Assembly: GCA_964384105.1 (NCBI GenBank)
Contig: CAYLJV010000008.1
Coordinates: 1-49,827 of the forward strand
Source of the DNA: Candidatus Hadarchaeota archaeon
GTDB taxonomy: Archaea > Hadarchaeota > Hadarchaeia > Hadarchaeales > JAGGTB01
DNA length: 49,827 nucleotides
Reading direction: 5' to 3'
Part shown: in pieces, positions 220 to 47,182 of the stretch
Layout: every line of letters starts with the position of its first letter
Position numbering within the stretch: the first letter of the stretch is position 1
Program-made: the position numbers and the translations under genes
The notes under the pieces: model-generated
What the model saw: only the letters and a program-made list of their open reading frames with translations
What the model was told of the DNA's origin: nothing
Databases searched by the model: none

Positions 220-483
220 ATGCGTAGGGGTAGACTGGAGATCTTAGGCGACATCCTCTCCGCCACGAAAAAACCCTCCACAAAGACAAGGATTGTCTAT
301 CATGCTAACCTAAGTTTCTCTCAAGCGGAAAGATATCTCAAACTTTTAATCAAGGAGGATCTCATCGAATGCGACGAAGAGGGTAAGAACGATAAATATG
401 AAATAACGGAAAAAGGCAGAAAATTCCTCAATGGTTTCCAAGAATTAGAGAACCTAATGGATGATGGAAAGTTTTCAAAGTAA
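220..483 (+). CDS. winged helix-turn-helix transcriptional regulator (ArnR1/HTH_45-like)
   Basis: RRGRLEILGDIL...KTRIVYHANLS...YLKLL...YEITEKG pattern typical of small archaeal wHTH regulators. Confidence 0.85.
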   Translation: MRRGRLEILGDILSATKKPSTKTRIVYHANLSFSQAERYLKLLIKEDLIECDEEGKNDKYEITEKGRKFLNGFQELENLMDDGKFSK

Positions 484-533: not shown

Positions 534-728
534 TTATTTCGCTTTCTTTGCTTCTAACTTCATCAGTTCTCTAGCGAAATCTGTAGGTTGGAAGAAACAC
601 TCGAGTAGACCCATCTTCTCAAGCTGTTTTAAAACCTTTTCAGACTCCCTTAAGTTTAAATTAAGACCACTAGATATTTCTTTGGCATTAATTGGTTTCA
701 ACGTAGACTGAGTTAAAATTTGGCTCAT
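534..728 (-). CDS. small wHTH-like protein; start revised from 851 to ATG 728
   Basis: INAKEISSGLNL..EKVLKQLEKMGLL HTH-like motif; a minus-strand operator and TATA at 843-805 lie inside the longer ORF, favouring the later start; resembles 8405..8626. Confidence 0.55.
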   Translation of the reverse strand: MSQILTQSTLKPINAKEISSGLNLNLRESEKVLKQLEKMGLLECFFQPTDFARELMKLEAKKAK

Positions 729-804
729 TAATTTTGATATTTCCAAATATAAATCTCCCTTAAATTCATTTTTTCTAATCCCCTTACTAAAATTGAGATT
801 TAAG

Positions 805-843
805 CTTTTAAAGCAATGAGAAATTAGATTCTGAACATAATTC
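805..843 (-). promoter_or_regulatory. operator plus TATA for the divergent wHTH gene
   Basis: 821-843 AAAT TAG ATTC T GAAC ATA ATTC, then on the minus strand an 8-bp spacer and TTTAAAAG. Confidence 0.6.
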
Positions 844-878
844 TTATCCATTAACAGGAATTAAATTTATTCTACCCC

Positions 879-919
879 GAATAACATTCTGAATGTAGTT
901 TAGTATTTCTTTTTATTAA
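879..919 (+). promoter_or_regulatory. operator plus TATA of the TasA-like operon
   Basis: 879-901 GAAT AAC ATTC T GAAT GTA GTTT, 8-bp spacer, TTTTTATTAA. Confidence 0.7.
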
Positions 920-1027
920 AAAGAGACAGTGTTATTTTTGGCTGGGCCAATGATTGTAAATTTCCTTAGATATAACTATTTCGAAGTGAATCTGATTTCC
1001 AGTCTCATATCACGCTCACAAAATGAG

Positions 1028-1075
1028 GCCGCCGAGGGGGGGCGGCATATAAATTCCCGAAAATAAGGGGAGGTG
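1028..1075 (+). promoter_or_regulatory. conserved 5'-leader hairpins, copy 1
   Basis: GCCGCC-GAGGGGG-GGCGGC, then a TCCC/GGGA stem overlapping the RBS GGAGGTG. Confidence 0.6.
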
Positions 1076-1084
1076 AAAAACGAA

Positions 1085-1798
1085 ATGATTAATTCAAAAA
1101 TCTTGGGAAGCATGATGGTCATGGGAATCGCAATAGTTCTAGCAGGTGCTGGAACTATGGCATATTTCAGCGATACTGAAACGAGCAGTGGTAACAACTT
1201 CACAGCTGGACAACTCGATCTTATGATCGACTTCGATGGTTACTACAATATGTATCCACTCGATGGAGAACCAAACGCCGGTTCATGGATGTATAAGGAC
1301 TTAGTAGAAGGTGATAAATTCTTTGACTTCGACGACATCAAGCCAGGTGACTGGGGAGAAGGAACAATCAGTATTCACGTCTACGATAATCCAGCCCTTT
1401 TATGGATTACAGCCGACAATATAATGGATAACGAAAATGGTATGAACGAGCCAGAAAATGAAGTTGATGACACACCTGAAGAAGGTGAGTTGTCTCAAAA
1501 TATACTGTTCACCATATGGGTGGACTGTGACGGAAGTAATACTTTAGACGAAGGAGAAGTTGTTCTTTGTGAAGGTGAACCACTAGCTACAGCTGAGGTA
1601 GGTCCAGTTTACATAGAAAACTGCACTGATTACTACTTAGGAGTAATGTGGGAAGTTCCATGGGACACGGGAAACATAATACAGAGTGATAGCGTGACGT
1701 TTGACATTACATTCTATGCCGAACAGGCAAGACACAACCCAGACATGGAAATTGCCGAAAATGTACCTTGCAACGGAGAACCAGTTATCGACTTATAA
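1085..1798 (+). CDS. TasA/CalY-like fibre subunit with SipW-cognate signal peptide (probable major pilin)
   Basis: GAGTMA|YFSDTETSSGNNFTAGQLDL signal/donor strand; DIKPGDWGE and GNIIQSDS TasA-family motifs; RBS favours ATG 1085. Confidence 0.85.
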   Translation: MINSKILGSMMVMGIAIVLAGAGTMAYFSDTETSSGNNFTAGQLDLMIDFDGYYNMYPLDGEPNAGSWMYKDLVEGDKFFDFDDIKPGDWGEGTISIHVYDNPALLWITADNIMDNENGMNEPENEVDDTPEEGELSQNILFTIWVDCDGSNTLDEGEVVLCEGEPLATAEVGPVYIENCTDYYLGVMWEVPWDTGNIIQSDSVTFDITFYAEQARHNPDMEIAENVPCNGEPVIDL

Positions 1799-1822
1799 AC
1801 GACGTTAATCAATCGGTAGAAA

Positions 1823-3343
1823 ATGAGAAGAGCACTTTTTTCAATAATGCTGATAGGTATCGTGGCGGTGGGAGCCACCGTTGGTGGACTTGCTGCCTTC
1901 CACGATACTGAATCCAGCAAAGGAAACACATTCCAAGCAGGTGACTTAGATCTAAAGATAGACTGGGAAACCTCTTACAACGGAAGCGAACCAGTAATAA
2001 CATCGTGGAACGACCTAGATGCAAGCGGAGATGGACCAATATTCAACTTCACCGACGTTAAACCGGGTGACTGGGGAGAAACAACCATAAGCGTACACGT
2101 CTTCACTAACGACGCGTGGGTTTGTGGAGAAATCGTCCCATACTCATACGATGACGTAAGCAGTAACGAACCCGAACTTCTAGTGGACGACAACAACATA
2201 GAAAATGATCAATGGGACGGTGAACTCGCTCAGAATTTGGATATAACGATCTGGCTAGAGAACGATGGAAACAACGAATATAACGACGATACGGACAGAC
2301 AACTGTTCTCAGGTAAATTTAGCGAACTCGACATTCCATTCTACTTCAACATGGATCAAAACCTCAACCCGGACGATGGCATACAGCCACTAATCGGGTG
2401 TGAGAACTATTATGTTGGCGTAAGCTGGAGTATCGATTCATCAGTTGGTAACGAGATTCAATCGGACGAGATAATGTTCGATATAATCTTTGACGCATAC
2501 CAGTACAGGCACCAAGAAGACAACAATCCATGTGTTCCTTGTGTAGACATAGAGGAGCTTTACTTGAGTGATTCTGGATACCCCAACAATGATGGTGGGG
2601 GAACCGAACTTTACTCAGTAACACTCGATGATACTGATAACAAGGCTTACTTAACATGGCTTGGACATCTGCCCGCAACGAACTTTGATGTAGTGGCAGC
2701 CTTAGCTTGTTCGAAAGACTTTGAGGAGCTTTACGCGATAGACATGGTCTCGAAGCACTTGGGAATCTTCAATCTCGGCACGAGTACTTTCGCCGACATG
2801 GGTGTAATCTCAGGTCTTCCAGATGGTGTGGTACTGGCATCATTCTCGCCATTCGATGACAATCTATACATAGCAAGCATGAGTACTGACGAGTTGTTTA
2901 CTCTAAATGTTGATAGTTTAGCTTTGAACAACCTAGGCACTATTACAAAGGAAGGCACGGCTGAGTCCCTCAACATCTGGGGGGCAGACATAGTCTTCGG
3001 TGCTGACGGAACACTCTACATTTGGATAAACGAAGCACCAACTACACCATCAGAACTAGGAGTATGGGCTGTAGACATTTCAACAATGACTGCCGAGCAC
3101 AGGGGAACACCCGAGAATGCTTTAGAGTTCAGTGGACTAGCAATCAGAGCCGGTGGTACTGGTGACTTAGTCGGTTCTGTAAAAGGCTGGTATCTAGATG
3201 ATCCAGTGCCGGAGAGATCCGCCATCTGGACTGTGGATCCAACTGACTCCACAATAGGAAAGAAGTACCCAACCTACCTCGACAATGACGAACGCCACAC
3301 ACTAGGAAACGGAGACATGGCAGTTGGTACCATATGCCGATAA
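1823..3343 (+). CDS. TasA-like subunit with C-terminal beta-propeller-like domain
   Basis: GGLA|AFHDTESSKGNTFQAGDLDL, DVKPGDWGE, GNEIQSD; C-terminal repeats (ALACSKD..LYAI, SFSPFDDNLYIA, DIVFGADGTLYI) resemble propeller blades. Confidence 0.8.
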   Translation: MRRALFSIMLIGIVAVGATVGGLAAFHDTESSKGNTFQAGDLDLKIDWETSYNGSEPVITSWNDLDASGDGPIFNFTDVKPGDWGETTISVHVFTNDAWVCGEIVPYSYDDVSSNEPELLVDDNNIENDQWDGELAQNLDITIWLENDGNNEYNDDTDRQLFSGKFSELDIPFYFNMDQNLNPDDGIQPLIGCENYYVGVSWSIDSSVGNEIQSDEIMFDIIFDAYQYRHQEDNNPCVPCVDIEELYLSDSGYPNNDGGGTELYSVTLDDTDNKAYLTWLGHLPATNFDVVAALACSKDFEELYAIDMVSKHLGIFNLGTSTFADMGVISGLPDGVVLASFSPFDDNLYIASMSTDELFTLNVDSLALNNLGTITKEGTAESLNIWGADIVFGADGTLYIWINEAPTTPSELGVWAVDISTMTAEHRGTPENALEFSGLAIRAGGTGDLVGSVKGWYLDDPVPERSAIWTVDPTDSTIGKKYPTYLDNDERHTLGNGDMAVGTICR

Positions 3344-3373
3344 GCGAATAAAGTAAAACACCAAAACAACATT

Positions 3374-3395
3374 CCTTTCTTTATTTTTTATTTTT
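3374..3395 (+). terminator. oligo-T terminator
   Basis: T-rich run directly after the 1823..3343 stop. Confidence 0.5.
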
Positions 3396-3435
3396 AATCG
3401 CCCGGTCAGGGCAAATCAGAAGTCGCGATCAAAGA

Positions 3436-3479
3436 GCCGCTGAAGAGGGGCGGGATAAAAATACTTCAAAAAAAGGAGT
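3436..3479 (+). promoter_or_regulatory. conserved 5'-leader hairpins, copy 2
   Basis: CCGCT-GAAGAGG-GGCGG, then an ACTTC/GGAGT stem over the RBS. Confidence 0.55.
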
Positions 3480-3489
3480 TGAAAAAAAG

Positions 3490-4035
3490 ATGAGAACAAA
3501 AGCAATAGTCGGCTTGATGATCCTGGGAGTAACCATATTCCTAGTCAGTACAAGCAGCATGGCTTACTTCCACGATACCGAAATCGGAAAAAACAATTTC
3601 TTCGGGGTTGGAACCTGGGGTGGTACCGAAACCGCATGGGCAGGATCTGATAATACACCCGAAGTAAACCCAGACGGATGGACATGGTTCGGCACAGGAT
3701 GGGGTGGGTACTTCCCTTACAATCCAGAAGATGGGATTACACTAGTTCCCTTAATCGCTGCCAGAAACATACCCGTTGGGGAATTACTCATAGACTTCGA
3801 TGATACAGATAATACCCTATTAGTTGAATTCTTTGTCGAGGAAAATTTCTACCTAACAGAAACACACCTTCATGTAGGAACAACAATCCCCGGCTCCGCA
3901 CCTGGATTATACCCCCTAGGAGACGATGAACTACCTGAGGGAACCTGGCATAAATCCTATGAAATAGACTTAGGATCCAATCCAGAAAACCAATACATAG
4001 CCGCACATGCAGTCGTTTATTCCGACAACTGGTAA
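3490..4035 (+). CDS. SipW-cognate signal peptide protein with non-TasA beta domain (possible tip subunit)
   Basis: SSMA|YFHDTEIGKNNFFGVGTW; lacks the xKPGD and GNxIQ core motifs. Confidence 0.75.
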   Translation: MRTKAIVGLMILGVTIFLVSTSSMAYFHDTEIGKNNFFGVGTWGGTETAWAGSDNTPEVNPDGWTWFGTGWGGYFPYNPEDGITLVPLIAARNIPVGELLIDFDDTDNTLLVEFFVEENFYLTETHLHVGTTIPGSAPGLYPLGDDELPEGTWHKSYEIDLGSNPENQYIAAHAVVYSDNW

Positions 4036-4207
4036 ATCCGATAATATTTCAAACGGATAGACCAGTTGTCAAGGAATAAAAAGAGTTAGATATGCTCTAG
4101 CAGGCACAGGGAGAGATTTTTAACTCTCCTACTAATATTAACTATTTCAATTTTAGAGAACATAGGAACATTGATTTACAATTACTGAATAAGAATCAAG
4201 CGAAAAA

Positions 4208-4651
4208 ATGAACGCTAAAGACAAGCTCATCTATGGATCTATCATTGCCCTTTTTTGCACCCTACTTATCCTATACATTGCCCCGATTCACTTCATAGTG
4301 GTAAGAGGACACAGCATGGAACCTACTATAGATGATGGTGAAATCGTTGTCTTATTACCAGTGGATAAAAACGATATCCAAACTGGAGATATAATCGCCT
4401 TTAGACATGGAGAAAAGCAAATCATTCACAGAGTCGTAAATTTCGAGAACGGGATGATAATAACGAAAGGAGATAATCTACCAGCCACAGATCCCTATCT
4501 CATTTCTAAATCCGATGTAGTAGGAAGATATGCCACAGAAATACCCTATCTGGGATTAGTGGTTCAATACGGAAGATCCCCCCTTATCTACATATTCCTG
4601 ATTTTAGTTCCGGCCGCTTTGCTAATTTACAGCGAAATCAGAAGGATTTGA
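4208..4651 (+). CDS. sipW: signal peptidase I, SipW/ER type
   Basis: GHSMEP, GDIIAF, IIHRV, TKGDN Ser-His-Asp motifs; N- and C-terminal TM helices. Confidence 0.9.
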   Translation: MNAKDKLIYGSIIALFCTLLILYIAPIHFIVVRGHSMEPTIDDGEIVVLLPVDKNDIQTGDIIAFRHGEKQIIHRVVNFENGMIITKGDNLPATDPYLISKSDVVGRYATEIPYLGLVVQYGRSPLIYIFLILVPAALLIYSEIRRI

Positions 4652-4668
4652 ATAAAGAAAATGAAACA

Positions 4669-4708
4669 GAAAAATATTCTGAGTTCAATTACTCCCTCAC
4701 TTATATTC
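4669..4708 (+). promoter_or_regulatory. degenerate operator plus TATA upstream of the second sipW
   Basis: 4669-4691 GAAA AAT ATTC T GAGT TCA ATTA, 8-bp spacer, CTTATATT. Confidence 0.45.
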
Positions 4709-4810
4709 AGAACTTATTAAACATACAAAAGGGAATCTAGGTGGAAAATATAATCTATTCAATCAGGTTTTTGAATCTCACACCGCGGATAAAGAGGACG
4801 GATCCTTCAA

Positions 4811-5761
4811 ATGAATAAGAAAGATGCCTTAGTTGCCGGAGTCGTTATAGTAATAATTGCCGGACTTGGGCCACCATTGATCTCAGGATCTCTACAGCCT
4901 TTGATAGTACTAAGTGGAAGCATGCAGCCGATAATGAATCCTGGAGATACGGTAATCATTAGAGAAACATCTCCTACAGAGATTAAAAGAGGAGATATAA
5001 TTGCATTTGACGACCCATCCGGAAGGTCAAATGTCTTGATAACCCATAGGGTAATCAACGTAAATAGCAATGAAGATAACCTATCTTTTAAAACAAAAGG
5101 CGATGCTTCAGAAGACCCGGACCCATTCGTTGTCAGTAGAGAAGATGTGGTCGGAAGAGCTGTATTTTCTATTCCCTATTTAGGCTACCTCTTCCACTAC
5201 GGGAGTCACCCCATCGTTCTAGTCTTGCTTATACTAATTCCTTCAATTCTGATAATCCTCAGCGAAATTCGAAAAATCAGCGAATACACGGACCCGATTA
5301 AGATACGAAAGAAGGAAAGAGAGGATAGAAAAAGTGGGAGTAGAACAAAGAGGATAAAAATAAATTATAAAAAATCAAGATTGTTAGGAATTCTGATCAT
5401 AAGCTTCCTGATATTCGGAATACTCTCCATCCCAACCTTGCAAAAGAGCGGAGAAAACACTACAGCTAGATTTTCTGGGGGGGATCTTTCTACCACCCTA
5501 GTTTATATGGAAGAAGAAAATCAGATACCACAATACAATATAATATCAAAAGGGGAGAATATTAGCCTGGAAAACAACCAGATGCACATGGTATCCGCCG
5601 CACCTCACATAATTCCCACATTCATGGTTGCCATTCTAGCGGAAGCAAATCCAAAATTACCGTCATTATTCACCCTCCTAGTACCACCCATATTCCTGAC
5701 ATTTCTACTATATCCCGTGTGGAGAAGACCTTCTAAAAGAGGAAAATCCAAAAGAAGATAA
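4811..5761 (+). CDS. sipW: signal peptidase I, SipW type, with C-terminal membrane extension
   Basis: SGSMQP, GDIIAF, ITHRV, TKGDA; extra domain of about 150 aa with TM segments. Confidence 0.88.
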   Translation: MNKKDALVAGVVIVIIAGLGPPLISGSLQPLIVLSGSMQPIMNPGDTVIIRETSPTEIKRGDIIAFDDPSGRSNVLITHRVINVNSNEDNLSFKTKGDASEDPDPFVVSREDVVGRAVFSIPYLGYLFHYGSHPIVLVLLILIPSILIILSEIRKISEYTDPIKIRKKEREDRKSGSRTKRIKINYKKSRLLGILIISFLIFGILSIPTLQKSGENTTARFSGGDLSTTLVYMEEENQIPQYNIISKGENISLENNQMHMVSAAPHIIPTFMVAILAEANPKLPSLFTLLVPPIFLTFLLYPVWRRPSKRGKSKRR

Positions 5762-5778
5762 AAATGGTTAATGAACCC

Positions 5779-5817
5779 GAATATTTTTCTGAACTACGTT
5801 TCCTGATACTTTTAAAC
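5779..5817 (+). promoter_or_regulatory. operator plus TATA
   Basis: 5779-5801 GAAT ATT TTTC T GAAC TAC GTTT, 8-bp spacer, TTTTAAA. Confidence 0.7.
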
Positions 5818-5876
5818 CTATTAAGCATTAAAATACATAGAAAGTTAGGAAAAATCTTCTCAGGATTTATGATATA

Positions 5877-6896
5877 ATGAATTACCAAGTAGCTTCTGCG
5901 ATTTCAAAGTACTACATCGTTTTTGCCGTAATATTAATTGCATTAGCTGGTATAGGAGGCTTCTGGCTTTATCAGAACTCCCAAACGGAGCTAGCAACCA
6001 GAAACGTGAAGCAAACAGCTTATATTTACGAAGGAGGGTTTCAGCATAGCGCAGAGGTTACCGAACCGAACGAGCTATGGCAAGTCGGTGCTATTCTAAA
6101 CAACCGACCAGCTTATTTCCTTTCGATCACTCCCGAGCTTGAAACAAACTTTAGGTTCAATCTTTACCAAGCCTCTGCTGTACAAGCAGATGCGAGAGTA
6201 GATACTGAGCTAGTAATATCTACAGTTCGCGATCAGATGGAATACTGGAAGGAAACCCGATATCTGGAAGGAGACGTTTTTTCTCTTCAAGAAAGATCTT
6301 CTACATTAAACATAACTCTCAATCTCCCTCAGATAAAAGAGAGAATTGAGAATATACAGGAAAACATCGGATATCGAGGTGGATCCACGAACGTTAAACT
6401 CATATCTACCGTCGAAATAGATGGTAGAATAGAGGGGAATGACGTCGAAATTAGCGAAACTTATGAAATGCCCCTCAATCTAGGTGAAACTATAGTTACC
6501 TTGTCGCCTAATATTTCACGTACACAAGAGGTCACTGAAACGATAACGAGAGAAGTTGAAGTTAAACCCACTCTATTCGAGAGATTATATCCCTCAATAC
6601 TCTTGGCAGCCAGTTTGATTGCGCTAGGCTTCGTTACACTAGAAAAAAGAAGAATCAATGAATCCGAACTAACACTGCTCAAAAAACAGCAGGAATTAAA
6701 CGAGTTCAAAGAGTGGATCTCCCGGGGTAAACTACCCGAAATAGACTCAAAAACCACCGTAAAAATGAACTCGCTGGAAGATCTCGTAGACACATCAGTA
6801 GACATGAACAGAAGAGTTATCTACGACGAAGAAAGGAACATTCACTTCTTCATACATGAAAACTACCTTTACACTTATGAACCGGAGGAGTACTAA
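5877..6896 (+). CDS. DUF5305-like membrane protein
   Basis: two TM helices; HSAEVTEPNELW, NRPAYF, EWISRG and SLEDLVDTSVDMNRRVIYD motifs; family typically found beside archaeal sipW. Confidence 0.7.
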   Translation: MNYQVASAISKYYIVFAVILIALAGIGGFWLYQNSQTELATRNVKQTAYIYEGGFQHSAEVTEPNELWQVGAILNNRPAYFLSITPELETNFRFNLYQASAVQADARVDTELVISTVRDQMEYWKETRYLEGDVFSLQERSSTLNITLNLPQIKERIENIQENIGYRGGSTNVKLISTVEIDGRIEGNDVEISETYEMPLNLGETIVTLSPNISRTQEVTETITREVEVKPTLFERLYPSILLAASLIALGFVTLEKRRINESELTLLKKQQELNEFKEWISRGKLPEIDSKTTVKMNSLEDLVDTSVDMNRRVIYDEERNIHFFIHENYLYTYEPEEY

Positions 6897-6903
6897 AGGG
6901 TAA

Positions 6904-6941
6904 GAATAAACTTCTGAACTACATTCCTTATCCTTTTAAGA
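6904..6941 (+). promoter_or_regulatory. operator plus TATA
   Basis: 6904-6926 GAAT AAA CTTC T GAAC TAC ATTC, 7-bp spacer, TTTTAAG. Confidence 0.7.
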
Positions 6942-7047
6942 ACCATGTTTTGGAATATAAAACTGGAAATCCTGGAAAATGGAAGTTAAAGCATAATATG
7001 ATATTATTTTAACTTTAAACGAGATAAAACAGAAAGGATAACAAAAA

Positions 7048-8370
7048 ATGATGAAAAACGTACCGCTTGCTCTTTTAATAATCGGTTTGGCGGCCGCCGG
7101 ACTAGGTACGGGTACCTACGCCATCACAAATGGCGATAACGGAGAAGATCTCCTACTGGAACTCGATTCGACAGATGAAAACTTCACTGTAACAACACAG
7201 GAAATAAATTGGACGGGAAGCTCTGTAATAAACCTAGAAGATATGAAACCCGGCGACACGGGAGATTTCGATGGAACCATTCAAAATAGCGGAGCAAACA
7301 GCGGAAACGTGTACTTTATTTTGAATATAACGAGCAATCTCGAGGGCAGTTGCCCCGAACCCGAGATGGTTGCTGAAGATGGCGATTGCGGGGAAAACGG
7401 GGAACTACCTTCAAATCTCAAAGTAAAGATCAGTTACGACAAAAACGGTGACGGAAATCTCGAAACCGTTCAAGATTGGACACATCTGTCTGATATTGAC
7501 AATACCCAGCTCTACTTCGGAACTATTTCCCCGGAGACCACAAGAAGCTGGGAATTAAGCTACAAGATCGAGCCCTGGGTTGGTAATATAATACAAGGAG
7601 ACATCTGTGAGTTCTCCATGACCGTTGGATTCTCGGAAACCGAACCAACAAGCCCCACCGGAACCACAACTACTACCAATAGGCCACCCTACGCAGACGC
7701 TAACGGCCCTTACGCCGTGAACGAGGGTGAGACTATTCTACTGGATGGATTCGGAAGCTGGGACCCCAATGGGGACATCCTAACCTACAACTGGTCTATT
7801 ACCGGGGATCCAACGGGTGCAGCGAGCTTGACTAACACTAGTTCAGAAACTCCAACATTCCACGCACCAACAGTTGACACCGACACGAACGTCACAGTCG
7901 AGTTAACCGTGAATGACGGCCATGGACACAGCGACACTGACACTGCTACAGTCACCGTGAGGGACATCGCCTCACCATCATCGGCCGAGTTCAGTATCGA
8001 AGACTTCACCATAACTCCAAACCCCGCCAACGTCGACGAAACAATCACAGTCTCCTTCAGAATCACAAACACGAGTGGTGTAACCGGTGATTTCACTGCG
8101 GGACTCTCGATAAACGGAGAACCTGTAGACAGCAAAACGGAGAGTTTCGATCCGGGGGACAGCAGGATGATGTCCTTCGAGGTAACAATAAGCGAACCCG
8201 GAACCTACGAGATTGACGTCAACGGAACCAAGGGAACTCTGGAAGTTACCGCACCGCCAACGCCCTTCCCAACACTCTCGGTGCTGGCAATAGTACTGAT
8301 AATCCTCTTATTAATCCTGATAGGAGCGTACTACAGAAAAAAGAGGCGAGAAGCGGCAAGTTCCTCGTAG
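7048..8370 (+). CDS. membrane-anchored TasA-like protein (TasA domain, Thr linker, PKD-like, CARDB-like, C-terminal TM plus basic tail)
   Basis: GTGTYA signal; DMKPGD, GNIIQGD; NRPPYADANGPY..SWDPNGDILTYNW PKD motif; TM followed by YYRKKRR. Confidence 0.8.
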   Translation: MMKNVPLALLIIGLAAAGLGTGTYAITNGDNGEDLLLELDSTDENFTVTTQEINWTGSSVINLEDMKPGDTGDFDGTIQNSGANSGNVYFILNITSNLEGSCPEPEMVAEDGDCGENGELPSNLKVKISYDKNGDGNLETVQDWTHLSDIDNTQLYFGTISPETTRSWELSYKIEPWVGNIIQGDICEFSMTVGFSETEPTSPTGTTTTTNRPPYADANGPYAVNEGETILLDGFGSWDPNGDILTYNWSITGDPTGAASLTNTSSETPTFHAPTVDTDTNVTVELTVNDGHGHSDTDTATVTVRDIASPSSAEFSIEDFTITPNPANVDETITVSFRITNTSGVTGDFTAGLSINGEPVDSKTESFDPGDSRMMSFEVTISEPGTYEIDVNGTKGTLEVTAPPTPFPTLSVLAIVLIILLLILIGAYYRKKRREAASSS

Positions 8371-8404
8371 GTAAAAAACAGAGAATACAGGAGGTCATTC
8401 AGCG

Positions 8405-8626
8405 ATGACCAAAAATGGAAGAAAGTGTAAATTGCTAAAATCAGTAGAAAAAATAATTTCGCACACAGCAAATGCGAGGTCGATAGACACCCATGAAATC
8501 CGCGATCTAACCGACCTAGAAATAAGTAGCATAAAGAAAATTATCCCAATACTCATTGGAATGGGACTACTACAGGATTCATTAACACCAACTGAGCTGG
8601 GTCTATTTATCATAGGACAAGTCTAA
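8405..8626 (+). CDS. small wHTH-like protein
   Basis: GGAGG RBS; IDTHEI..LIGMGLL..PT parallels the 534..728 product. Confidence 0.5.
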   Translation: MTKNGRKCKLLKSVEKIISHTANARSIDTHEIRDLTDLEISSIKKIIPILIGMGLLQDSLTPTELGLFIIGQV

Positions 8627-8637
8627 AACACTGTAAT

Positions 8638-9714
8638 TCATCCACTCATTGTGTTTAAGTAGTCCCTGATCTTCCCCATGCTTTCATTCCAACTTGGGAG
8701 CTCCTCAAATCTTTCTCGTGCATTCTCGCTCATATCCCCCAGCTTTTCGGGGTTTTCCTTAATCCACTCTAGACACTCGATAAGAGAATCAATGTCCCCC
8801 GGTCCGATTAGAAAGCCCTGCTTCCCATCGGTTATGAATTCACTCGCTCCACCTTTTTTCGAAGCAATAACCGGCAGCCCATGCCCCAACGCCTCCACAT
8901 AGACTATTCCAAATCCTTCGTAGAAGGAAGGAACTGCCAGAAGGTCGCTACTTCCATACAGATTCGAAAGTCGTTCCTCTGAGACAAAGCCGAGGAGTTT
9001 CACTCTTGAATCCAAAGACTCCTCTCTGATCATTCTCCTTATATGTCGGGAGTAACCTTCATCGGTGCCCATTTTTCCCACTATTTTCAACGAGAAACCC
9101 TCAACCCGAGAAAGCGCCTTAATCAATACGTCGAGGCCCTTATGAGGATGCATATTTCCGACAAAAAGTATCGTAAGATCCTCCTTATCTCCTGGTGAAG
9201 CCACTTTCTTTGGTGAGATATGGTCCTTGCCTGGATAAGCCACGACGCCATCTGCTTCATTCACGAGTGAAATCACGTCATCTCTCGTTGCTCGGCTATT
9301 GAAAACGAATCCATCGAGGGTCCTGAGGTATCTTTCCTCGAAGTACTTGTACATCTCACTCCTTTCTATTTCTCTGGTTGCTAAAAACGACAGGTGATGA
9401 ACTATGGATACAAGAGGATATTCGACCTCGCCTTTTAGTTTCTGATTCAAGTAGAATAGAGAAGAATGGTTTAGTTCATCTTGTAAAAGTACATCTACAT
9501 CTAATCCCCGAAGTCTCTCGTAGAGATTCTCATCAAAATTGTTGGATACATTTCCCAGATAATCTTTCCTTGGTATCGAAACGACTTCGACTTCGTCTCC
9601 CTTTTCCTCAAGATAACTGATCAGCATCCTATCGTAAAGATAGCCGCCTGTAATCTGCCTCAAGTCACCATAAATCAGAAGACCTACTCTCATTCGAACA
9701 CCCAAGATTCTCAA
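8638..9714 (-). CDS. glycosyltransferase family 4
   Basis: TGGYLYDR, FVGN..PHKG, EGFGIVYVEAL (EX7E). Confidence 0.9.
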   Translation of the reverse strand: MRILGVRMRVGLLIYGDLRQITGGYLYDRMLISYLEEKGDEVEVVSIPRKDYLGNVSNNFDENLYERLRGLDVDVLLQDELNHSSLFYLNQKLKGEVEYPLVSIVHHLSFLATREIERSEMYKYFEERYLRTLDGFVFNSRATRDDVISLVNEADGVVAYPGKDHISPKKVASPGDKEDLTILFVGNMHPHKGLDVLIKALSRVEGFSLKIVGKMGTDEGYSRHIRRMIREESLDSRVKLLGFVSEERLSNLYGSSDLLAVPSFYEGFGIVYVEALGHGLPVIASKKGGASEFITDGKQGFLIGPGDIDSLIECLEWIKENPEKLGDMSENARERFEELPSWNESMGKIRDYLNTMSG

Positions 9715-9762
9715 TCAGTTTTCTAATGAAATAAAGAGTTTTAAAGATAGTCAGATATTTTG

Positions 9763-10650
9763 TTAACACCTTTTTACTCCCGCTATATCTATCTGATGTG
9801 CTATGAAGATTAATTCTCCATTAGCTATCTCCCTCTGACGCTCCGAAAGCCATTTTTCGAGAATATTATCAAGCTCTCTTCCCGAAATGGATTGATTTAT
9901 CATTTCTAATATACATCGAAGGAAGTATTTTTCTTCAGGAACATATTTCCCATATCTTGGAAAAACTATCCAATCAGAACTACCTACATCAATTATTTTC
10001 ACATTACTCTCGAATGAGAGTTCGAGAAGTTTACGACCTGTCTGGCTATCTCCCGGACCAGAACTCATCTCTTCATGATATGTTCTAATTATTTCTTCGT
10101 CACCCTCGATTTTTGGTCTGAATATAGTAACACCATCAAAATTAAGAGTTAAGTAAAAAAATCCATCTTCGGCAAGCAAAGAAAGAAGCGGATCTAAGGT
10201 CTCTTCCAAATCTACAAGGTCCATAAAAGAATTTGCTATCAGAAGATTCCACTTACCCTTCTCAGATTTTGTAAAATCGAAAATATCTGCATTTTTCAGT
10301 CTAAGTCTAATTTCAATATCCTCGTCTTCCAAAAAAATGTTCGTAGAATCGAGATAGTTTTGCTCAATACCCCTCTCCTCACACCACCTCCTAAGATAAT
10401 TTTTCGCTTTCGAAATCAAATCACTATCATTTTCTACGAGGGTATATTCCCCTCTCTTCAGTACTCCCCAATCTAGAAGTCTAACAACCATCGTACCTAT
10501 TCCACCACCAGCCTCAATTATTCTAAGATCCGAACTGGGTAAATGACTTTTTAAGGAGTCAAAAACTCTTCTATTCAAAGATCTATCATCGACAATCTTC
10601 TTAGCCTTGAGATAATGAGCAAAGTCAAAGTCTTTCACAAAAATCGCCAA
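9763..10650 (-). CDS. class I SAM-dependent methyltransferase-like protein
   Basis: YLKAKKIVDDRSLN, IIEAGGGIG SAM motif, SSDW. Confidence 0.75.
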   Translation of the reverse strand: MAIFVKDFDFAHYLKAKKIVDDRSLNRRVFDSLKSHLPSSDLRIIEAGGGIGTMVVRLLDWGVLKRGEYTLVENDSDLISKAKNYLRRWCEERGIEQNYLDSTNIFLEDEDIEIRLRLKNADIFDFTKSEKGKWNLLIANSFMDLVDLEETLDPLLSLLAEDGFFYLTLNFDGVTIFRPKIEGDEEIIRTYHEEMSSGPGDSQTGRKLLELSFESNVKIIDVGSSDWIVFPRYGKYVPEEKYFLRCILEMINQSISGRELDNILEKWLSERQREIANGELIFIAHQIDIAGVKRC

Positions 10651-10798
10651 ATGATATTATGTCAAAATAAACTGTTAATTTTTGTTTTTTGTAGAAGGAT
10701 TAATTCCTATTTATTAACAGATACTTGTCTTATTTAATAGAAATTAAAAGTAATTTAGAAATTCTTCTTTTTTTATTAATTAAAACTAGTTAAGAGCA

Positions 10799-10838
10799 GA
10801 ATTATATTCTGAACATAACAAACTACTAATTTTTATTT
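10799..10838 (+). promoter_or_regulatory. operator plus TATA
   Basis: 10799-10821 GAAT TAT ATTC T GAAC ATA ACAA, 8-bp spacer, TTTTTATT. Confidence 0.6.
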
Positions 10839-10870
10839 TCAAACTTCAATTTTTAATCAACTGCCTAGGA

Positions 10871-11059
10871 GTGGCAGATAAATTAAATATATCCAGAATG
10901 AGGGGGGTGATTAAACTGGTTAAGTGTGGAATTTGTGGAAAAGAAGTAGATGAGCAACCGAAGATAACATCAGATGGTAAATGTTCTATTTGTGGAAAGA
11001 ACTTGATGCCTTGTGAGGTAGTAGCAAAGGAAGTTAAGAAATATTATACAGGCTTCTAG
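10871..11059 (+). CDS. small zinc-finger protein; true start probably CTG 10916
   Basis: CGICG and CSICG; GGGGGTGA RBS precedes codon 10916. Confidence 0.65.
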   Translation: MADKLNISRMRGVIKLVKCGICGKEVDEQPKITSDGKCSICGKNLMPCEVVAKEVKKYYTGF

Positions 11060-11403
11060 GAAATTCATTTACCTACGTTAGAGATCTAGAAGTTGATTGA
11101 GCAAAAATAATTTTGAAAGTAAAGTTACATTCTCAGTAAATCTCAAAAATTTTTCTTCTTTTTTCTTTCTTTTGTCTCTAAATCATCTAAGACTTGTAAT
11201 AGGACCTATTCCGTTTTCTCTTCTTCCCGTATCTGCCTAATTTTTTTCATTCTCCAGTATTCGATTCAAGTAACTCAGAACTCCTAATTCTTCCCTTACT
11301 TTTCGTTTCATGCGAAAAGCACCACCAGATTTCTTAATTCTAATCCAAACCATAATTTGTGAATAAACTAAAGGATAAATAGTAGTAATCTTCATTGAAA
11401 AGA

Positions 11404-12204
11404 TCATAGTCTCTTGATGAAATCCTTCAGCACTCGGTTAAATCTGGAAAATTCCTCAATGAATGGACAATGTCCACTATTCTCAAAACGGATCAATTCA
11501 GAGTTTGGCATATGTTCAGCAGCATATTCGACTCCATCGGGAGGAACAAATTTTTCGTCTTCACCTAAACATACTAAGGTGGGTACATCCACTTTCAGTA
11601 ATATCTCTCGGTAGTCCCGAATTGTTTGATCAAATAATATTGCACTTTTTATAGAAGGTGGCACTCGAGAGATTTCATCGAACATCATGGATTTAATTTC
11701 TTCAGATGGTGGCTCTTTTAACATATGTTCAATTAATGAGTCTGCTAACTTGTCTGGGTCGGTTTGTATGAGTTCCATAGTGTCTATAAGTTCTTGAAGA
11801 TTGAATAACCCGTGGTTGTAGTCAGACCATTTATAATCGGAAGGGTGCTGATCCACATCGACAAACCCTTTTAGTTTGTCTGTTCCGAATTGGCTAATGT
11901 AATCCCAGCCGACCAAAGCGCCCATCGACCAGCCAACCAGTACAAAATCTTCAATTGAAAGATGCTTTAAGAATGTATTTAGGTCAGCGGCATATTGGGG
12001 CACAGTGTGACCAGTTTCTGTTTTCTCTGATCGTCCATGTCCCCTAAAATCAATAGCAATTATTCGAAAGTCATCTTTAAGTTCTGAGATTTGTTTAGTG
12101 AAGAACCGACTTCCCATTAAAACTCCATGGAGAAAAACTATTGGGGTCCCATCACCTTCATCCTCATAGTAAAGCCTCGCGCCGTTACAGCTAATATTTG
12201 ACAT
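11404..12204 (-). CDS. alpha/beta hydrolase (non-heme chloroperoxidase-like)
   Basis: FLHG, DFRGHGRS, GWSMG nucleophile elbow, SGH. Confidence 0.9.
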   Translation of the reverse strand: MSNISCNGARLYYEDEGDGTPIVFLHGVLMGSRFFTKQISELKDDFRIIAIDFRGHGRSEKTETGHTVPQYAADLNTFLKHLSIEDFVLVGWSMGALVGWDYISQFGTDKLKGFVDVDQHPSDYKWSDYNHGLFNLQELIDTMELIQTDPDKLADSLIEHMLKEPPSEEIKSMMFDEISRVPPSIKSAILFDQTIRDYREILLKVDVPTLVCLGEDEKFVPPDGVEYAAEHMPNSELIRFENSGHCPFIEEFSRFNRVLKDFIKRL

Positions 12205-12440
12205 ATGTTAACTTGCTCAGTATTGAAAAATAAATCTTTTTAAATAATATTTAGTGTTTGAAAGTTTTTTCAGAATAAATTGTCCGAGCCATTATAAGTG
12301 AAAGAAGAATAGCTTTGATAATCTCTATAGATCTAACATTTAATCTATTTCGACTTGAATATAGAATACTTTAGTCTTATTTCCAATTATTCAGAAGGTC
12401 AATTCTAGTTTTGTAAGAAAATAACATATTTTAATGGGTA

Positions 12441-12560
12441 TGGTGCGGGGGCGGGGACTCGAACCCCGGAAGGACTTATCCACTAGGTCCTAAGCTTGGC
12501 CTTTTCCCAACCATCCGATTGAGGAAAATCTAGCCCCTTTGACCACTTGGGTACCCCCGC
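12441..12560 (-). tRNA. tRNA-Leu(TAG) with 34-nt intron at position 30/31 (12496-12529)
   Basis: GCGGGGG/CCCCCGC acceptor plus ACCA, long variable arm, TTCGAGT T-loop; removing the intron restores CTAGG-CTTAGGA-CCTAG; BHB GGCT-AG^A / GGCC-AA^G. Confidence 0.92.
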
Positions 12561-12606
12561 AAATCTTGATACTAATCTGGTATACTAACGTAAAACTGTC
12601 ACTCCA

Positions 12607-12801
12607 TTAACCTCTAAACGCGCGGTCTCTTCTGGCCATCTTCTCATATCTAGACTTCTTCTTTGCCTTTTTCTTACAATTTTTACAGTACCACTCACCT
12701 GACAGTTTCTTGGCACAGGTTCTGTGAACATCACTCCCACAAATAGAACAAGTAACAACTGCATCTTCCAATTCCTTCCCGCAAACCGAACATTCAACCA
12801 A
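12607..12801 (-). CDS. small Cys-rich zinc-finger protein
   Basis: CxxC, CxxC, HxxC, CxxC; GAGGTG RBS. Confidence 0.75.
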   Translation of the reverse strand: MVECSVCGKELEDAVVTCSICGSDVHRTCAKKLSGEWYCKNCKKKAKKKSRYEKMARRDRAFRG

Positions 12802-12972
12802 CTAATCCACCTCACTAGAATCTTTTATCAATGACATTTTTAAATAAAATTCCTAGCCTATAATTATTAGGTAACTATTAAAAAAGATTGAATAAAGTAA
12901 AAAGAAGTCTAAGTAAGAAATAGACTATACCAATAGTAAAAATCAATAGAAAAATAACAGAAGGTTGCCGAT

Positions 12973-13596
12973 ATGGAATATCTTGAGTTCTTTGCAAAAG
13001 CCTTTGTGACCATTTTTATCATCGTGGACCCACCCGGCAACATTCCCCTGTTCATCTCCCTAACCGATACTGCATCCGACGAGGAAAGAAACGTTATTTC
13101 AAAAAAGGCTACTATAATAGGAGTTGTTCTGCTACTAATTGTAGCGGTTACAGGTACTTTCATACTCGATATCTTTAGAATTACTATAGACGGTCTGAGG
13201 ATAGCTGGTGGCATCCTTCTTTTCATAGTCGCAGCCGACATACTCATGGGGGACAGAAGGAAAAGAAAATACATCGAGGCGAAGGATGGAACCACCGATA
13301 CGGACGCCTTAGCCACATTCCCAATAGCACTACCGCTCTATACCGGACCGGGCGCCATCACCGCAGCTATAGTCCTGTATTCGACAGCCGAAACAATACT
13401 GCTAAAAGCCCTAGTTCTCGTAGCCATAGTCCTTACCTACATCATTGTGAGAATAACTCATATGTACAGGAATCAAATCTTGAGAGCTCTCGGTAGAAGT
13501 GGATCGAATATTTTTGCAAGATTGATGACAATATTCATCGCAGCTATAGCAGTAGAGTATTTCTTTACGGGGCTTCTGAACAAAATACCGCTTTAA
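12973..13596 (+). CDS. MarC family membrane protein
   Basis: IVDPPGNIPLF, RIAGGILLF, FPIALPLYTGPGAI. Confidence 0.92.
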   Translation: MEYLEFFAKAFVTIFIIVDPPGNIPLFISLTDTASDEERNVISKKATIIGVVLLLIVAVTGTFILDIFRITIDGLRIAGGILLFIVAADILMGDRRKRKYIEAKDGTTDTDALATFPIALPLYTGPGAITAAIVLYSTAETILLKALVLVAIVLTYIIVRITHMYRNQILRALGRSGSNIFARLMTIFIAAIAVEYFFTGLLNKIPL

Positions 13597-13750
13597 ACCA
13601 TCGATAAGGTACTGGTCATTAACTGATTCATATTAAAGGAATATCGGATGGATAGAGAATCTTAGCCATACCGATATGATAATTAATCTCTCCGATTGAG
13701 ATTTAACAACAAAATTCTAAATAAAAAAATAAAAGCAACTTTGATAAATT

Positions 13751-13954
13751 CTAGAGTTCCTCATCTTTCTCGTCTTCAAACTCTGCGAGTTCTTCTTCAA
13801 GCTCTTCTATCTCCGACTCTAGTTCTTCGACTTTGTTTACACTTTCAATTAGCCTCTTAACGAGATTGTCCATAGGTTCATCTTCCTCTCGAATATCCAT
13901 TAGTGCATTGTAGATTCCTTCGCTCAACTCCAAAGTCTTACGTTCATCCGACAT
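13751..13954 (-). CDS. small acidic RHH/antitoxin-like protein
   Basis: RKTLELSEGIYNAL..EPMDNLVKRL; GGAGG RBS before ATG 13954. Confidence 0.55.
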   Translation of the reverse strand: MSDERKTLELSEGIYNALMDIREEDEPMDNLVKRLIESVNKVEELESEIEELEEELAEFEDEKDEEL

Positions 13955-14172
13955 AGTATCCTCCTTACTTTTAATCTGAGAGGACAGCATTGCTGGCCCT
14001 CTCGACTTTTTGCTGTCACTGGGTGTATTTAAGTATATAATGATTATCTTTCTGAACCCAATAAAGATTTGAAAGACAGGGGGAAAATTTTGAATAGAAC
14101 TGCTTTAACAATAAACAAAGAAATCAGACAAATTTTTAGGAAATGAGTTTTAATATAGGGTGGTGATTTTGT

Positions 14173-14376
14173 ATGGTAGATAAAATCCCAGAATATGAAG
14201 ATTACTGTAACGAATGCGAAAGCAAAACAAGAATGAAATTCGTAAAGCGAGAAGACGAATACCTTATTTACGAATGCTCGTTATGTAGTCATAAAGAAGA
14301 GCTTTCCGAGGCCGAAATGGAGGAAAAACTCTCTGAAGAGGACTGGGAAGAGTGGAAAGACGAATGGGAAGAATAA
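14173..14376 (+). CDS. small zinc-ribbon protein with acidic tail
   Basis: CNEC and CSLC; GGTGA RBS. Confidence 0.65.
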   Translation: MVDKIPEYEDYCNECESKTRMKFVKREDEYLIYECSLCSHKEELSEAEMEEKLSEEDWEEWKDEWEE

Positions 14377-14542
14377 CTTCAAAAAAATAGAACACTTAAA
14401 AACAGCTCATGAGGCTTTAAATGAACAAAATGAGCTGAAAAAAACATAAAAATTCGTTCTCTTAAATTTTACGCTCAAAATAGGATAATATCTCAATCCT
14501 TTTACTCTTGAATGTACATAGTTAACTCAGATGATCTAGGAG

Positions 14543-14902
14543 TTGTATATTTTGGAACTAATAATCCCTCCATCTCAAGTGAAACGCTATAGGAAAAAGA
14601 AAGGCCTAAGCATCGAAGAATTAGCCAGAGAAATAGGCTGGACACCAGCTTATATAGAAAATCTAGAATCCGGTAATGTCAATCCACCATTTTCTCGTTT
14701 AATGAAAATAACTAAAGCCTTGAGAGAAGATCTTCCCTATAAATGGAAATTTGAAGAAAATCTCGAATTCGTAAGAAAAGTATATTACAAATGGACGTGC
14801 CCTCAATGTGGAAATCAAGTAGAGGGGGAAACAGAAGAAGATGCAAAGGATAGAGCAAAAAAACACGTTTTCTTACAACATGAAGGGGATTTAAACCTCT
14901 AA
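14543..14902 (+). CDS. XRE-family HTH protein with C-terminal C2H2-like finger
   Basis: RKKKGLSIEELA..IENLESG; CPQC...HVFLQH. Confidence 0.8.
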   Translation: MYILELIIPPSQVKRYRKKKGLSIEELAREIGWTPAYIENLESGNVNPPFSRLMKITKALREDLPYKWKFEENLEFVRKVYYKWTCPQCGNQVEGETEEDAKDRAKKHVFLQHEGDLNL

Positions 14903-15086
14903 AATTTTAGGAACCCTCATTTAATGAGAAGTTTATAATGTAAATTCCATTCAATATTTGGGTTCTAAAAAAGGTAAGTAGAGATTCCAATTTTCTTCTT
15001 CGGTCTGGATAGTGATATCAATAACAAAAAATAAAGGTACAGAAATTGCAAACAAACCAACTCAAATCACTGAAATACACGTGCGA

Positions 15087-15680
15087 TCAATAAAACTTCT
15101 CTTCGATTATATTATTAGAAGTATCCAGATACAACCACCAAGAAAGAGCAAAAGTAACCGCTATTGTAGTAGCGCCACCTACAAACCACATCCTCCCAAA
15201 TAAGGCAAAGAAATTATTCGAAAAATGAAGAAGTACCGCAAGAAAATAAAAAGCAGCAGATTTCTTCTTAGCTATCCCGTATGCAGCGATTGATGTTAAC
15301 GCAGCGTGAAAGAATATCCCTGGCAACCTTATCATAACTGGAGCCCCATAGGAAAAAACATAGATAAAGAACTCAACGATTCCAAATCCCAATCCAATAA
15401 GAAAACCAAAAATAAATATAGACCGCTCGGTCTCGCCGTGTCGGTAGAAAAGAGGGTAAGCTTTTGCGAACTCTTCTATTAAAGGAGCTGATATCGCTAT
15501 AGAGAAAAAAGCCGCATAGAACGCGGGTAGTGATGATGATAAAATATTAGAAAATCTTTCAGCAAATATCGTAAGTGGAACACTCAAAACTATTCCGGAA
15601 ATAAAGAAAAAGAACTTTTCTTTCAAATCTGGTTCGTGAACTTTGATAGTTATTCTTTTCCTTACCAAAAATCTACCCAT
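15087..15680 (-). CDS. PrsW family intramembrane metalloprotease
   Basis: APLIEEFAK, GLGFGIVE, FFH and LLHFSNN motifs. Confidence 0.85.
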   Translation of the reverse strand: MGRFLVRKRITIKVHEPDLKEKFFFFISGIVLSVPLTIFAERFSNILSSSLPAFYAAFFSIAISAPLIEEFAKAYPLFYRHGETERSIFIFGFLIGLGFGIVEFFIYVFSYGAPVMIRLPGIFFHAALTSIAAYGIAKKKSAAFYFLAVLLHFSNNFFALFGRMWFVGGATTIAVTFALSWWLYLDTSNNIIEEKFY

Positions 15681-15795
15681 ATTATTAATCTTGAATATGC
15701 TTTATAACTGCCGATATCATTAAAGATTTGAAAATAGAATTGTAGTTGATAAAAATTAATAGTCATTGCCAAAATAGAACATTCCCAATAAGAAT

Positions 15796-15957
15796 ATGGC
15801 TAAAATGAAAATCTGTAAAAAATGTGGAAAAAAGACCGAGTACCTGACCGATGGACTCTGTGATGACTGCTACATAGAAGAAAACGAAGGGCCGTGTGAT
15901 TGTTTTACAAGACTAGAATGGTTTGGAAAAGAAGAAGATGACAGATGGAAAAAATAA
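15796..15957 (+). CDS. 53-aa Cys-rich microprotein (not in ORF track)
   Basis: translated by hand: MAKMKICKKCGKKTEYLTDGLCDDCYIEENEGPCDCF...WKK*. Confidence 0.65.
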   Translation: MAKMKICKKCGKKTEYLTDGLCDDCYIEENEGPCDCFTRLEWFGKEEDDRWKK

Positions 15958-16226
15958 TCAATAAATCAATGATATTTAAATTATAGAAAAAGAAGGGGGA
16001 TCGACCGGCCTTTCATACCTCGGATGGTAATTAGAAGAGGATATAGATTGCATTGGTAGAAATGGAATTTCCAAACCTTCTTCAATTTTGATATCTGCTC
16101 GGACATCTAAATAAGGAAGTCACTGTAATTCACCAAAATATTCGTAAATTCAGGAATCGGAAAATACTATTGCTTTTACTTAAACTTCGATCTAATCCTT
16201 ACATCCAATTTTTGTGTCCATGGACA

Positions 16227-16267
16227 GAACTACGTTCTGAACAGAAGGTAGTATTCCTTTTTATATT
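16227..16267 (+). promoter_or_regulatory. operator plus TATA of the orphan TasA-vWA gene
   Basis: 16227-16249 GAAC TAC GTTC T GAAC AGA AGGT, spacer AGTATTCC (cf. AGTATTTC at 902), TTTTTATATT. Confidence 0.7.
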
Positions 16268-16377
16268 GACTTAATCATACGTTTTTTAGATTTGAGGGGG
16301 GGTAAAAATAGATTTCAATGAAGTAGGAAATATGAGTTTTCTACTTCTTTAGTGAATAAACTTACACATTTCTCGTT

Positions 16378-45216: not shown

Positions 45217-45230
45217 GATATCTACTCCAA

Positions 45231-46426: not shown

Positions 46427-46448
46427 AATACAATCACTCCAACTTTTC

Positions 46449-47178: not shown

Positions 47179-47182
47179 AATT

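Follow-up and report, generated by a model that had tools for sequence, protein, structure and literature searches.

A 23-bp element upstream of seven fibre-locus promoters in an uncultured Hadarchaeota/MSBL1-like archaeon, a putative activator site

In Bacillus subtilis, SinR represses the tapA-sipW-tasA operon and has the consensus GTTCTYT. Strand-donation fibres of the TasA/tafi type have recently been recognised as widespread archaeal biofilm structures (PMC9245690, PMC11821415, PMC12337348), with TafD and TafG as the signature pair of Tat-fimbriae clusters and of their Sec-type relatives in Thermococcales and Archaeoglobales (PMC11821415, PMC12337348). The regulation of these fibres has only been guessed at: TafB is proposed to activate tafD ("may activate tafD"; PMC11821415), and the accessible parts of PMC11821415 and PMC12337348 describe no cis element. 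At the archaellin (flaB) promoter of Sulfolobus acidocaldarius, two inverted repeats, the ArnR boxes, lie at -43 to -84 and are both needed for binding (PMC6396743). In Methanococcus maripaludis, transcription of fla depends on the activator EarA, with a link to a weak B recognition element (BRE) shown by a bypass mutation in the BRE (PMC5512572) and a 6-bp EarA consensus of TACATA (PMC6396743). Here we analysed contig CAYLJV010000008.1 (positions 1 to 49,827, hereafter the window), in which a 23-bp element, GAAY-N3-RTTC-T-GAAY-N3-RTTY, stands upstream of seven promoters of a TasA/tafi-like fibre locus.

All motif counts given here cover the 49.8-kb window. The seven sites of the original prediction (821-843 on the minus strand, and 879, 4669, 5779, 6904, 10799 and 16227) were all recovered, with 0-3 mismatches. 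At up to 3 mismatches, the full pattern gave 15 strand-matches against 5.27 expected, a count reached by none of 100 dinucleotide-preserving shuffles. The tight core GAAYNNNNTTCWGAAY (GAAY-N4-TTCWGAAY) gave 6 exact matches against 0.15 expected (0/100 shuffles reached 6; shuffle maximum, 2), and these six are the listed sites except the degenerate one at 4669. The pattern GAA-N5-TTC-N-GAA occurred five times (0.79 expected), always in intergenic DNA. These counts against shuffled sequence rule out a chance origin of the copies. In a leave-one-out test, in which six sites made up the weight matrix and the seventh was scored with it, the site left out always ranked 7th-16th among 99,610 positions. 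Every one of the seven copies is intergenic, with intergenic DNA making up 21.8% of the window in our own gene map, and every one is directed at the next gene. Two look-alikes, upstream of a hydrolase gene (matrix score 6.5) and of an Nnr gene (2.1), were too weak and were rejected as sites. The single 11-bp palindrome alone was not enriched in the window (10 vs 6.0 expected), which points to the composite as the functional unit; together with the barely enriched 7-bp centre TTCWGAA (25 vs 18.0 expected), this led us to reject scattered single half-operators. The 23-bp motif is a real, non-random and direction-bound element that precedes a T/A-rich box by a fixed distance in seven promoters. 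It had been put forward as undescribed, and our literature searches likewise turned up no description of the motif or of a regulator site for such fibre clusters; the element is new in sequence and belongs to a kind already known, the archaeal upstream regulatory site at filament promoters.

The element is asymmetric. In the position table, GAA at positions 1-3, TTC at 9-11 and GA at 13-14 are each present at all seven sites, A at 15 and T at 12 at six, and TT at 21-22 at five; the N positions inside the motif vary freely, the kept positions being the symmetric GAA/TTC triplets. The original prediction had described two tandem 11-bp palindromes. The distal one is indeed a strong GAAY-N3-RTTC, but the abutting TATA-proximal one is much weaker, with 11 mismatches summed over the seven sites compared with 3 in the distal palindrome. 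The weak end faces the promoter at every site except 6904, whose proximal half matches better than its distal half. When the seven regions are aligned over 121 nt, conservation is confined to the motif columns and the T-rich box. The operator of NrpR has the consensus GGAA-N6-TTCC and lies at or after the TATA box. We rejected it as a counterpart: the sites here read GAA-N5-TTC, keep no flanking G/C and lie upstream of the T/A-rich box, and the NrpR consensus is unmatched.

The spacer from motif to T/A-rich box measures 7, 7, 8, 8, 8, 8 and 9 bp, so that the TATA-like box claimed earlier is present at all seven sites, but at a distance of 7-9 rather than 7-8 bp. The words that follow the spacer are TTTAAAAG, TTTTTATT, TTATATTC, TTTTAAAC, TTTTAAGA, ATTTTTAT and TTTTTATA. 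A TATA-like word at +7 to +9 was found at 7/7 motif sites, compared with 839 of 21,680 intergenic positions (3.9%), a contrast whose nominal probability is too small because the word list was picked after the sites had been seen. We infer that the T/A-rich box is the TATA box, which would place the element at roughly -38 to -61 from the start site. The spacer, which would then hold the BRE position, is pyrimidine-rich: purines make up 16/55 of its positions (29%) compared with 291/609 (48%) in the heptamers that precede other TATA-like words (p ~0.006), a noisy background in which many words are non-promoters. The core promoters may thus deviate from a BRE consensus, as the statement that they lack a purine-rich BRE would have it; the contrast with the tRNA-Glu and NifX promoters was checked by eye only, on guessed TATA boxes. 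The contrasting NifX promoter, at ~48760, carries a purine-rich GGAAAGC before TTTAAATA and lies ahead of genes for consecutive MinD/Mrp-type ATPase-ferredoxin fusions and for several small domains of the NifX/NifB-like kind (43532-47954).

On the minus strand, the copy at 821..843 faces the small winged helix-turn-helix (wHTH)-like gene 534..746, with 0 mismatches in its distal palindrome and 1 in its proximal palindrome, an 8-bp spacer and a box at 805-812. The remaining six copies are on the plus strand. The best-scoring copy, at 879..901 (0 mismatches to the pattern), faces the major TasA-like pilin gene, and its 8-bp spacer leads to a box at 910-917, 175 nt before the ATG at 1085. The copy at 4669..4691, 18 nt after the stop codon of the first signal peptidase gene, is degenerate, as had been said of it (3 mismatches), and has a 9-bp spacer before the box TTATATTC at 4701. 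Since a second TTCAGAAC core at 4698-4720 overlaps this TATA-like box, the 4669 promoter may be built unlike the other six. At 5779..5801 the element faces the DUF5305/TafG-like gene (8-bp spacer, box 5810-5817), and at 6904..6926 a gene for a TasA-like protein with a PKD domain, behind which the wHTH-like gene 8405..8626 follows (7-bp spacer, box 6934-6941). The last two copies have poor proximal palindromes, with 3 mismatches each: that at 10799..10821 faces a 62-aa zinc-ribbon open reading frame (ORF) (7-bp spacer, box 10829-10836), and that at 16227..16249 faces a gene for a TasA-like protein with a VWA domain, its 8-bp spacer leading to a box at 16258-16265, 178 nt before the start codon. 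At the 10799 site, the distal palindrome also gives a minus-strand match (10787-10809, matrix score 14.3), with a T/A-rich stretch 6 bp on. Facing this match are methyltransferase/glycosyltransferase genes (9763-10650 and 8638-9714) that may modify the fibres and be regulated with them. An uncertain eighth site, the plus-strand near-motif at 14042..14064, has the best matrix score outside the seven (16.4). It lies directly downstream of a TATA-like stretch (region 14027-14064) and is followed by an acidic zinc-ribbon ORF of 67 aa and by an XRE-type helix-turn-helix (HTH) gene (14173-14902), a position that would fit repression by the same factor.

On balance, we lean towards reading the element as a putative activator site, at which a factor would help TFB/TBP at seven fibre-locus promoters. 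In archaea, the usual place for an activator is immediately upstream of the BRE, at promoters whose BRE/TATA are weak; repressors bind at the core promoter itself or downstream of it, and sites upstream of the BRE are associated with activation (available sections of PMC5512572). We prefer activation because the element shares its placement, its two-palindrome logic and its surface-filament target with the ArnR boxes, and because upstream-of-BRE sites go with activation. The taf-like clusters of Thermococcus and Archaeoglobus also adjoin a small putative regulator (PMC11821415). Under this model, a small winged-helix protein would be the sequence-specific transcription factor and would bind the element as a pair of dimers or as a tetramer. 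It would load on the strong distal palindrome, spread cooperatively to the weak proximal one, and aid the loading of TFB/TBP where the BRE/TATA is poor. This would switch on the regulator gene 534..746 along with all fibre genes, in a positive feedback.

We then considered which protein might act at the element. The wHTH protein 220..483 (plus strand, 87 aa) belongs to the Sso10a family by curated cut-offs (PF14947, HTH_45, 82.2 bits vs 25.5; NF053610, 86.4 vs 60); it matches PDB 1r7j (E 1.1e-10) and, weakly and far below the cut-off, the ArnR model (E 0.0049). The 219 bp upstream of it hold no motif (best matrix score 2.2). The gene on the minus strand at 534..746 encodes a small wHTH-like protein, probably of 70 aa. 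A mechanical 105-aa ORF (ATG 851, minus strand) would cross the operator at 821-843; the true start is probably the TTG at 746, which has GGGAG 8 nt upstream, and two known relatives share the N-terminal KISKLM stretch. Because this gene is transcribed away from the pilin operon and carries a copy of the element itself, it shows the classic layout of a local autoregulated regulator. A second small wHTH-like protein (73 aa; 8405..8626, plus strand) is encoded 34 nt behind the motif-driven 7048..8370. The reading frame 534..728 is 29% identical to 8405..8626 (E 0.003), and hhalign matched a joint profile of 8405..8626, 534..746 and the two relatives of the latter to the profile of 220..483 (probability 71%, E 3.6e-5). 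Scores for 534..728 stay below the Sso10a cut-off (NF053610, 15.9 bits vs 60), and 8405..8626 has no NF053610 match. It is the profile-profile comparison that links the two small proteins with 220..483; they appear to be its distant Sso10a-type paralogs, candidate members that may work as the family does. In the ESM Atlas, both gave leads at 0.88-0.91 to mixed MarR/ArsR/HTH_45-like clusters. A word-based search with 220..483 returned 3 relatives on contigs of 673-7,861 bp, and an exhaustive search with 534..728 returned 2 relatives among 1.84 billion representatives, which makes for a very sparse sampling of the family; none of these 3 + 2 relatives could be placed beside a DUF5305 gene.

An alternative candidate is the XRE-type HTH protein at 14543..14902 (plus strand, 119 aa), for which SinR chains are the closest relatives of solved structure (E 6.5e-5 to 1.2e-4), in an alignment that covers the HTH part only (residues 12-60). 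Its match to the SlrR model (E 1.1e-5) reaches 25.5 bits against a cut-off of 250, a generic HTH_3 match that does not place it in the SinR/SlrR family. The original prediction had named 220..483 as the obvious candidate, which is too strong a statement: this gene has no upstream motif, 534..746 has a copy of its own, and both 8405..8626 and the XRE gene are local too. The 534..746 protein is at least as good a candidate, and 220..483 cannot be ranked above it. The factor is most likely one among the three local Sso10a-like wHTH proteins. Taken singly, 220..483 and 534..746 are each possible, to the same tentative degree, and 8405..8626 is unlikely; a factor encoded elsewhere is a rather doubtful possibility, and the XRE protein is as unlikely as 8405..8626.

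A repressor operator, at which the SinR-like XRE protein or one of the wHTH proteins would keep TFB/TBP off until a signal arrives, is the main alternative, possible but doubtful. The weak proximal half lies only 7-9 bp from the T/A-rich box, and a footprint there could cover the BRE; the 14042 near-motif, downstream of a TATA-like stretch and before the XRE gene, occupies a repressor-type position; and a repressor would parallel SinR at tapA-sipW-tasA, given the SinR chains among the solved relatives of the XRE protein and its SlrR match. The matches of the same protein, however, are generic HTH_3 ones far under the family cut-offs, and the position of the seven copies upstream of the BRE is where archaeal sites activate rather than repress (PMC5512572, in the parts available). 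The pyrimidine-rich, non-consensus spacer likewise fits a promoter in need of help, not one in need of silencing.

The likeness of the seven promoters might also come from descent, as duplicated promoter cassettes left over from the duplication of paralogous fibre genes and served by no dedicated factor. Among the seven downstream genes are three TasA-like paralogs, and two pairs of spacers look alike (879/16227 and 5779/6904). The other four genes (wHTH, peptidase, DUF5305 and zinc ribbon) are mutually unrelated, however, so that shared promoter descent fails to explain the likeness. Moreover, the similarity ends at the edges of the motif and of the T-rich box, with no graded flank similarity visible in the 121-nt alignment, and the retention of the symmetric GAA/TTC triplets with free N positions speaks for selection for binding and not for recent duplication; we regard such cassettes as quite improbable. 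More improbable still is an element that works at the level of RNA or of rearrangement, either as a terminator or processing signal or as a recombinase target that flips fibre promoters in phase variation. It would agree with the three copies that lie 8-18 nt after a stop codon (4669, 5779 and 6904) and with the mutual inversion of the 821 and 879 copies, but the palindromes would form only 4-bp A/U-rich stems, and the copies at 821, 879, 10799 and 16227 are not behind a gene read in the direction of the motif. No recombinase gene was present among the 20 ORFs scanned in 1-19 kb, and the Rfam matches in the window were two tRNAs only.

Several points weigh against the activator reading. TFB could just as well be blocked by a protein sitting 7-9 bp from the TATA box, and two dimers whose centres are 12 bp apart may clash. 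The Sso10a proteins of Sulfolobus are chromatin or architectural proteins according to the accessible portion of PMC4941522, with which the NCBIfam name agrees. The AlphaFold model of 534..746, built on a 4-row alignment, has a mean pLDDT (predicted local distance difference test score) of 62.8, a low confidence that leaves its fold tentative. The TATA boxes were assigned by eye, from words chosen once the sites were known. Finally, a related-locus search with 7 DUF5305 proteins found one locus (L001), in a Hadarchaeota metagenome-assembled genome. This locus carries a syntenic cluster (pilins, zinc-ribbon ORF, PKD protein, two peptidases and DUF5305, the last 41% identical, where closer DUF5305 relatives on other contigs reach 45-46%), and the motif is not enriched in it (11 matches at up to 2 mismatches vs 12.2 expected), nor is any word shared across its intergenic regions. 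The L001 contig begins 176 nt before the first pilin gene, and the main promoter and any regulator genes are therefore missing from it. The motif is thus either lineage-specific or one that L001 is unable to show. That the element "defines the fibre regulon" accordingly holds in so far as the seven promoters serve fibre genes, but is seen for this window only, the sole related locus being without the motif. The zinc-ribbon protein 10871..11059 had no significant match to the zinc-ribbon ORF of L001 (E 0.022).

The genes served by the element are, as judged from their sequences, a Sec-type tafi/TasA-like fibre cluster, which includes the small wHTH proteins; the further genes described here are all on the plus strand. 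The pilin block (1085..4651) is headed by a TasA/camelysin-like pilin with a SipW-type signal-peptide N-terminus (1085-1798), followed by a 506-aa protein (1823-3343) and a 181-aa protein (3490-4035) with the same type of N-terminus, and ends with an archaeal-type signal peptidase I (4208-4651). Next comes a TafD-like signal peptidase of 316 aa (4811..5761), which combines an S26 domain with about four hydrophobic segments (at ~residues 4-29, 124-157, 187-213 and 282-304); it scores 115 bits on the archaeal signal peptidase I model (cut-off 51.85) and 108 bits on the SipW model, under the cut-off of 190. The DUF5305 (TafG-like) protein at 5877..6896 matches PF17231 (E 1.6e-42, 145.8 bits vs a cut-off of 29). 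The TasA-like + PKD protein at 7048..8370 has a C-terminal hydrophobic segment (residues 402-432), and could possibly be a membrane anchor or a terminator subunit, like the TafF described for tafi. The 62-aa zinc-ribbon ORF at 10871..11059 (CxxC...CxxC) has an alternative start at ATG 10898, and the TasA-like + VWA protein at 16436..18040, with a SipW-type signal peptide, is a possible adhesin subunit. The TIGR04088 model (SipW-dependent-type signal peptide) was matched above its cut-off in 1085-1798, 1823-3343 and 16436-18040; the N-termini of four proteins are alike, and Peptidase_M73 matches are also present. Filament formation by donor-strand exchange is predicted from this gene set. The window is archaeal chromosome, as it carries TFB, GGGP synthase and lysine biosynthesis genes. 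Its aspartate-semialdehyde dehydrogenase is 72-74% identical to those of named Hadesarchaea/Hadarchaeota and 72% to that of MSBL1 (best match, 80%), and the host is an uncultured Hadarchaeota/MSBL1-like archaeon.

A further feature of the fibre genes is a leader element found at 1026-1056, 3436-3462 and 16376-16400, which consists of a GC hairpin (GCCGCC/GGCGGC) with a purine-rich loop, followed by ATAYAA, and lies ~35-60 nt ahead of the pilin-type start codons at 1085, 3490 and 16436. Two pilin genes of the distant locus L001 are preceded by a nearly identical element (positions 118-145 and ~2530-2555 of that locus). In the predicted 6-bp stem, 0 of 6 pairs show a compensatory change and the 3' arm is the more conserved of the two arms; Rfam gave no match to the element. 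The hairpin may be an element of mRNA stability, processing or ribosome standby, and it suggests a second, leader-level layer of control that would be better conserved than the operator. Locus L001 also holds a repeated stretch of ~45 nt (~2395-2440 and 3440-3492) with a GGGAGGA...TCCTCCC hairpin, behind the genes ending at 2376 and 3356, which looks like a shared terminator or processing signal. In the window, a small hairpin at 10861-10884 (CTGCC, loop TAGGAGT, GGCAG), similar to that of the pilin leaders and followed by ATAAATT, lies where the zinc-ribbon transcript is predicted to begin, and as it overlaps the GTG at 10871, ATG 10898 is a possible true start of this ORF.

A broader and more speculative reading, to which we give a low degree of belief, joins these observations: Sso10a-type chromatin proteins would have been recruited as a dedicated and sequence-specific switch of the surface-fibre regulon, with three paralogs (220..483, 534..746 and 8405..8626) acting on an array of four half-sites. 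From their place upstream of a crippled BRE they would turn on the seven promoters, with feedback on the genes of two of the paralogs and with repression through the downstream-of-TATA copy at 14042, and this control would be coupled to a post-transcriptional layer at the leader hairpins. If true, archaeal TasA/tafi-type fibres would thereby have their first cis-regulatory code. A factor from the Sso10a family would also bear on whether that family is architectural or gene-specific, a matter raised in the accessible text of PMC4941522. The value of the finding is limited by an uncultured host and by a motif that was not seen in L001, the sole relative locus. A defined 23-bp element with four candidate proteins nevertheless makes the guess about fibre regulation directly testable at the bench, and a confirmed activator would extend the short list of archaeal activators by one case.

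Compared with the SinR operators of Bacillus subtilis, the locus shares a TasA-type fibre operon, a SipW-type peptidase, repeated short sites and a nearby small HTH gene. The core here contains RTTCT, set against GTTCTYT for SinR, and the full consensus is matched at 0 of the 7 sites. SinR is, moreover, a bacterial repressor at a sigma-A promoter, and the XRE protein here is only generically similar to it. The taf and taf-like clusters share strand-donation pilins, a two-domain TafD, a TafG with DUF5305 and an adjacent small regulator (PMC11821415, PMC12337348). Haloarchaeal TafB, by contrast, is predicted to be membrane-bound and annotated as Lrp/AsnC-like in the parts of PMC11821415 that are accessible, and the pilins here differ from taf pilins in their Sec/SipW-type signal peptides and in their matches to TasA/camelysin models instead of DUF1102. 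The EarA sites of the Methanococcus maripaludis fla promoter resemble the present element as repeated short sites immediately upstream of the BRE/TATA of a filament operon (PMC5512572). They differ in being four 6-bp direct sites rather than palindromes, in serving the archaellum regulon and in binding another protein family; no EarA-like gene was identified in the window. The ArnR boxes have the sequence TCGAC-N5-GTCGA (15 bp) rather than GAAY-N3-RTTC (11 bp), whereas the palindromes here abut in a 12-bp register (PMC6396743). ArnR itself is a membrane-bound one-component protein (269 model positions), unlike the soluble local candidates of 70-87 aa, and acts at one main promoter, compared with the seven promoters at which binding is predicted here. 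Box-1 and box-2, bound by the activators ArnR/ArnR1 with an N-terminal HTH domain in the regulator, are nevertheless like the element described here in that neighbouring inverted repeats stand upstream of the BRE/TATA of a surface-filament gene (PMC6396743).

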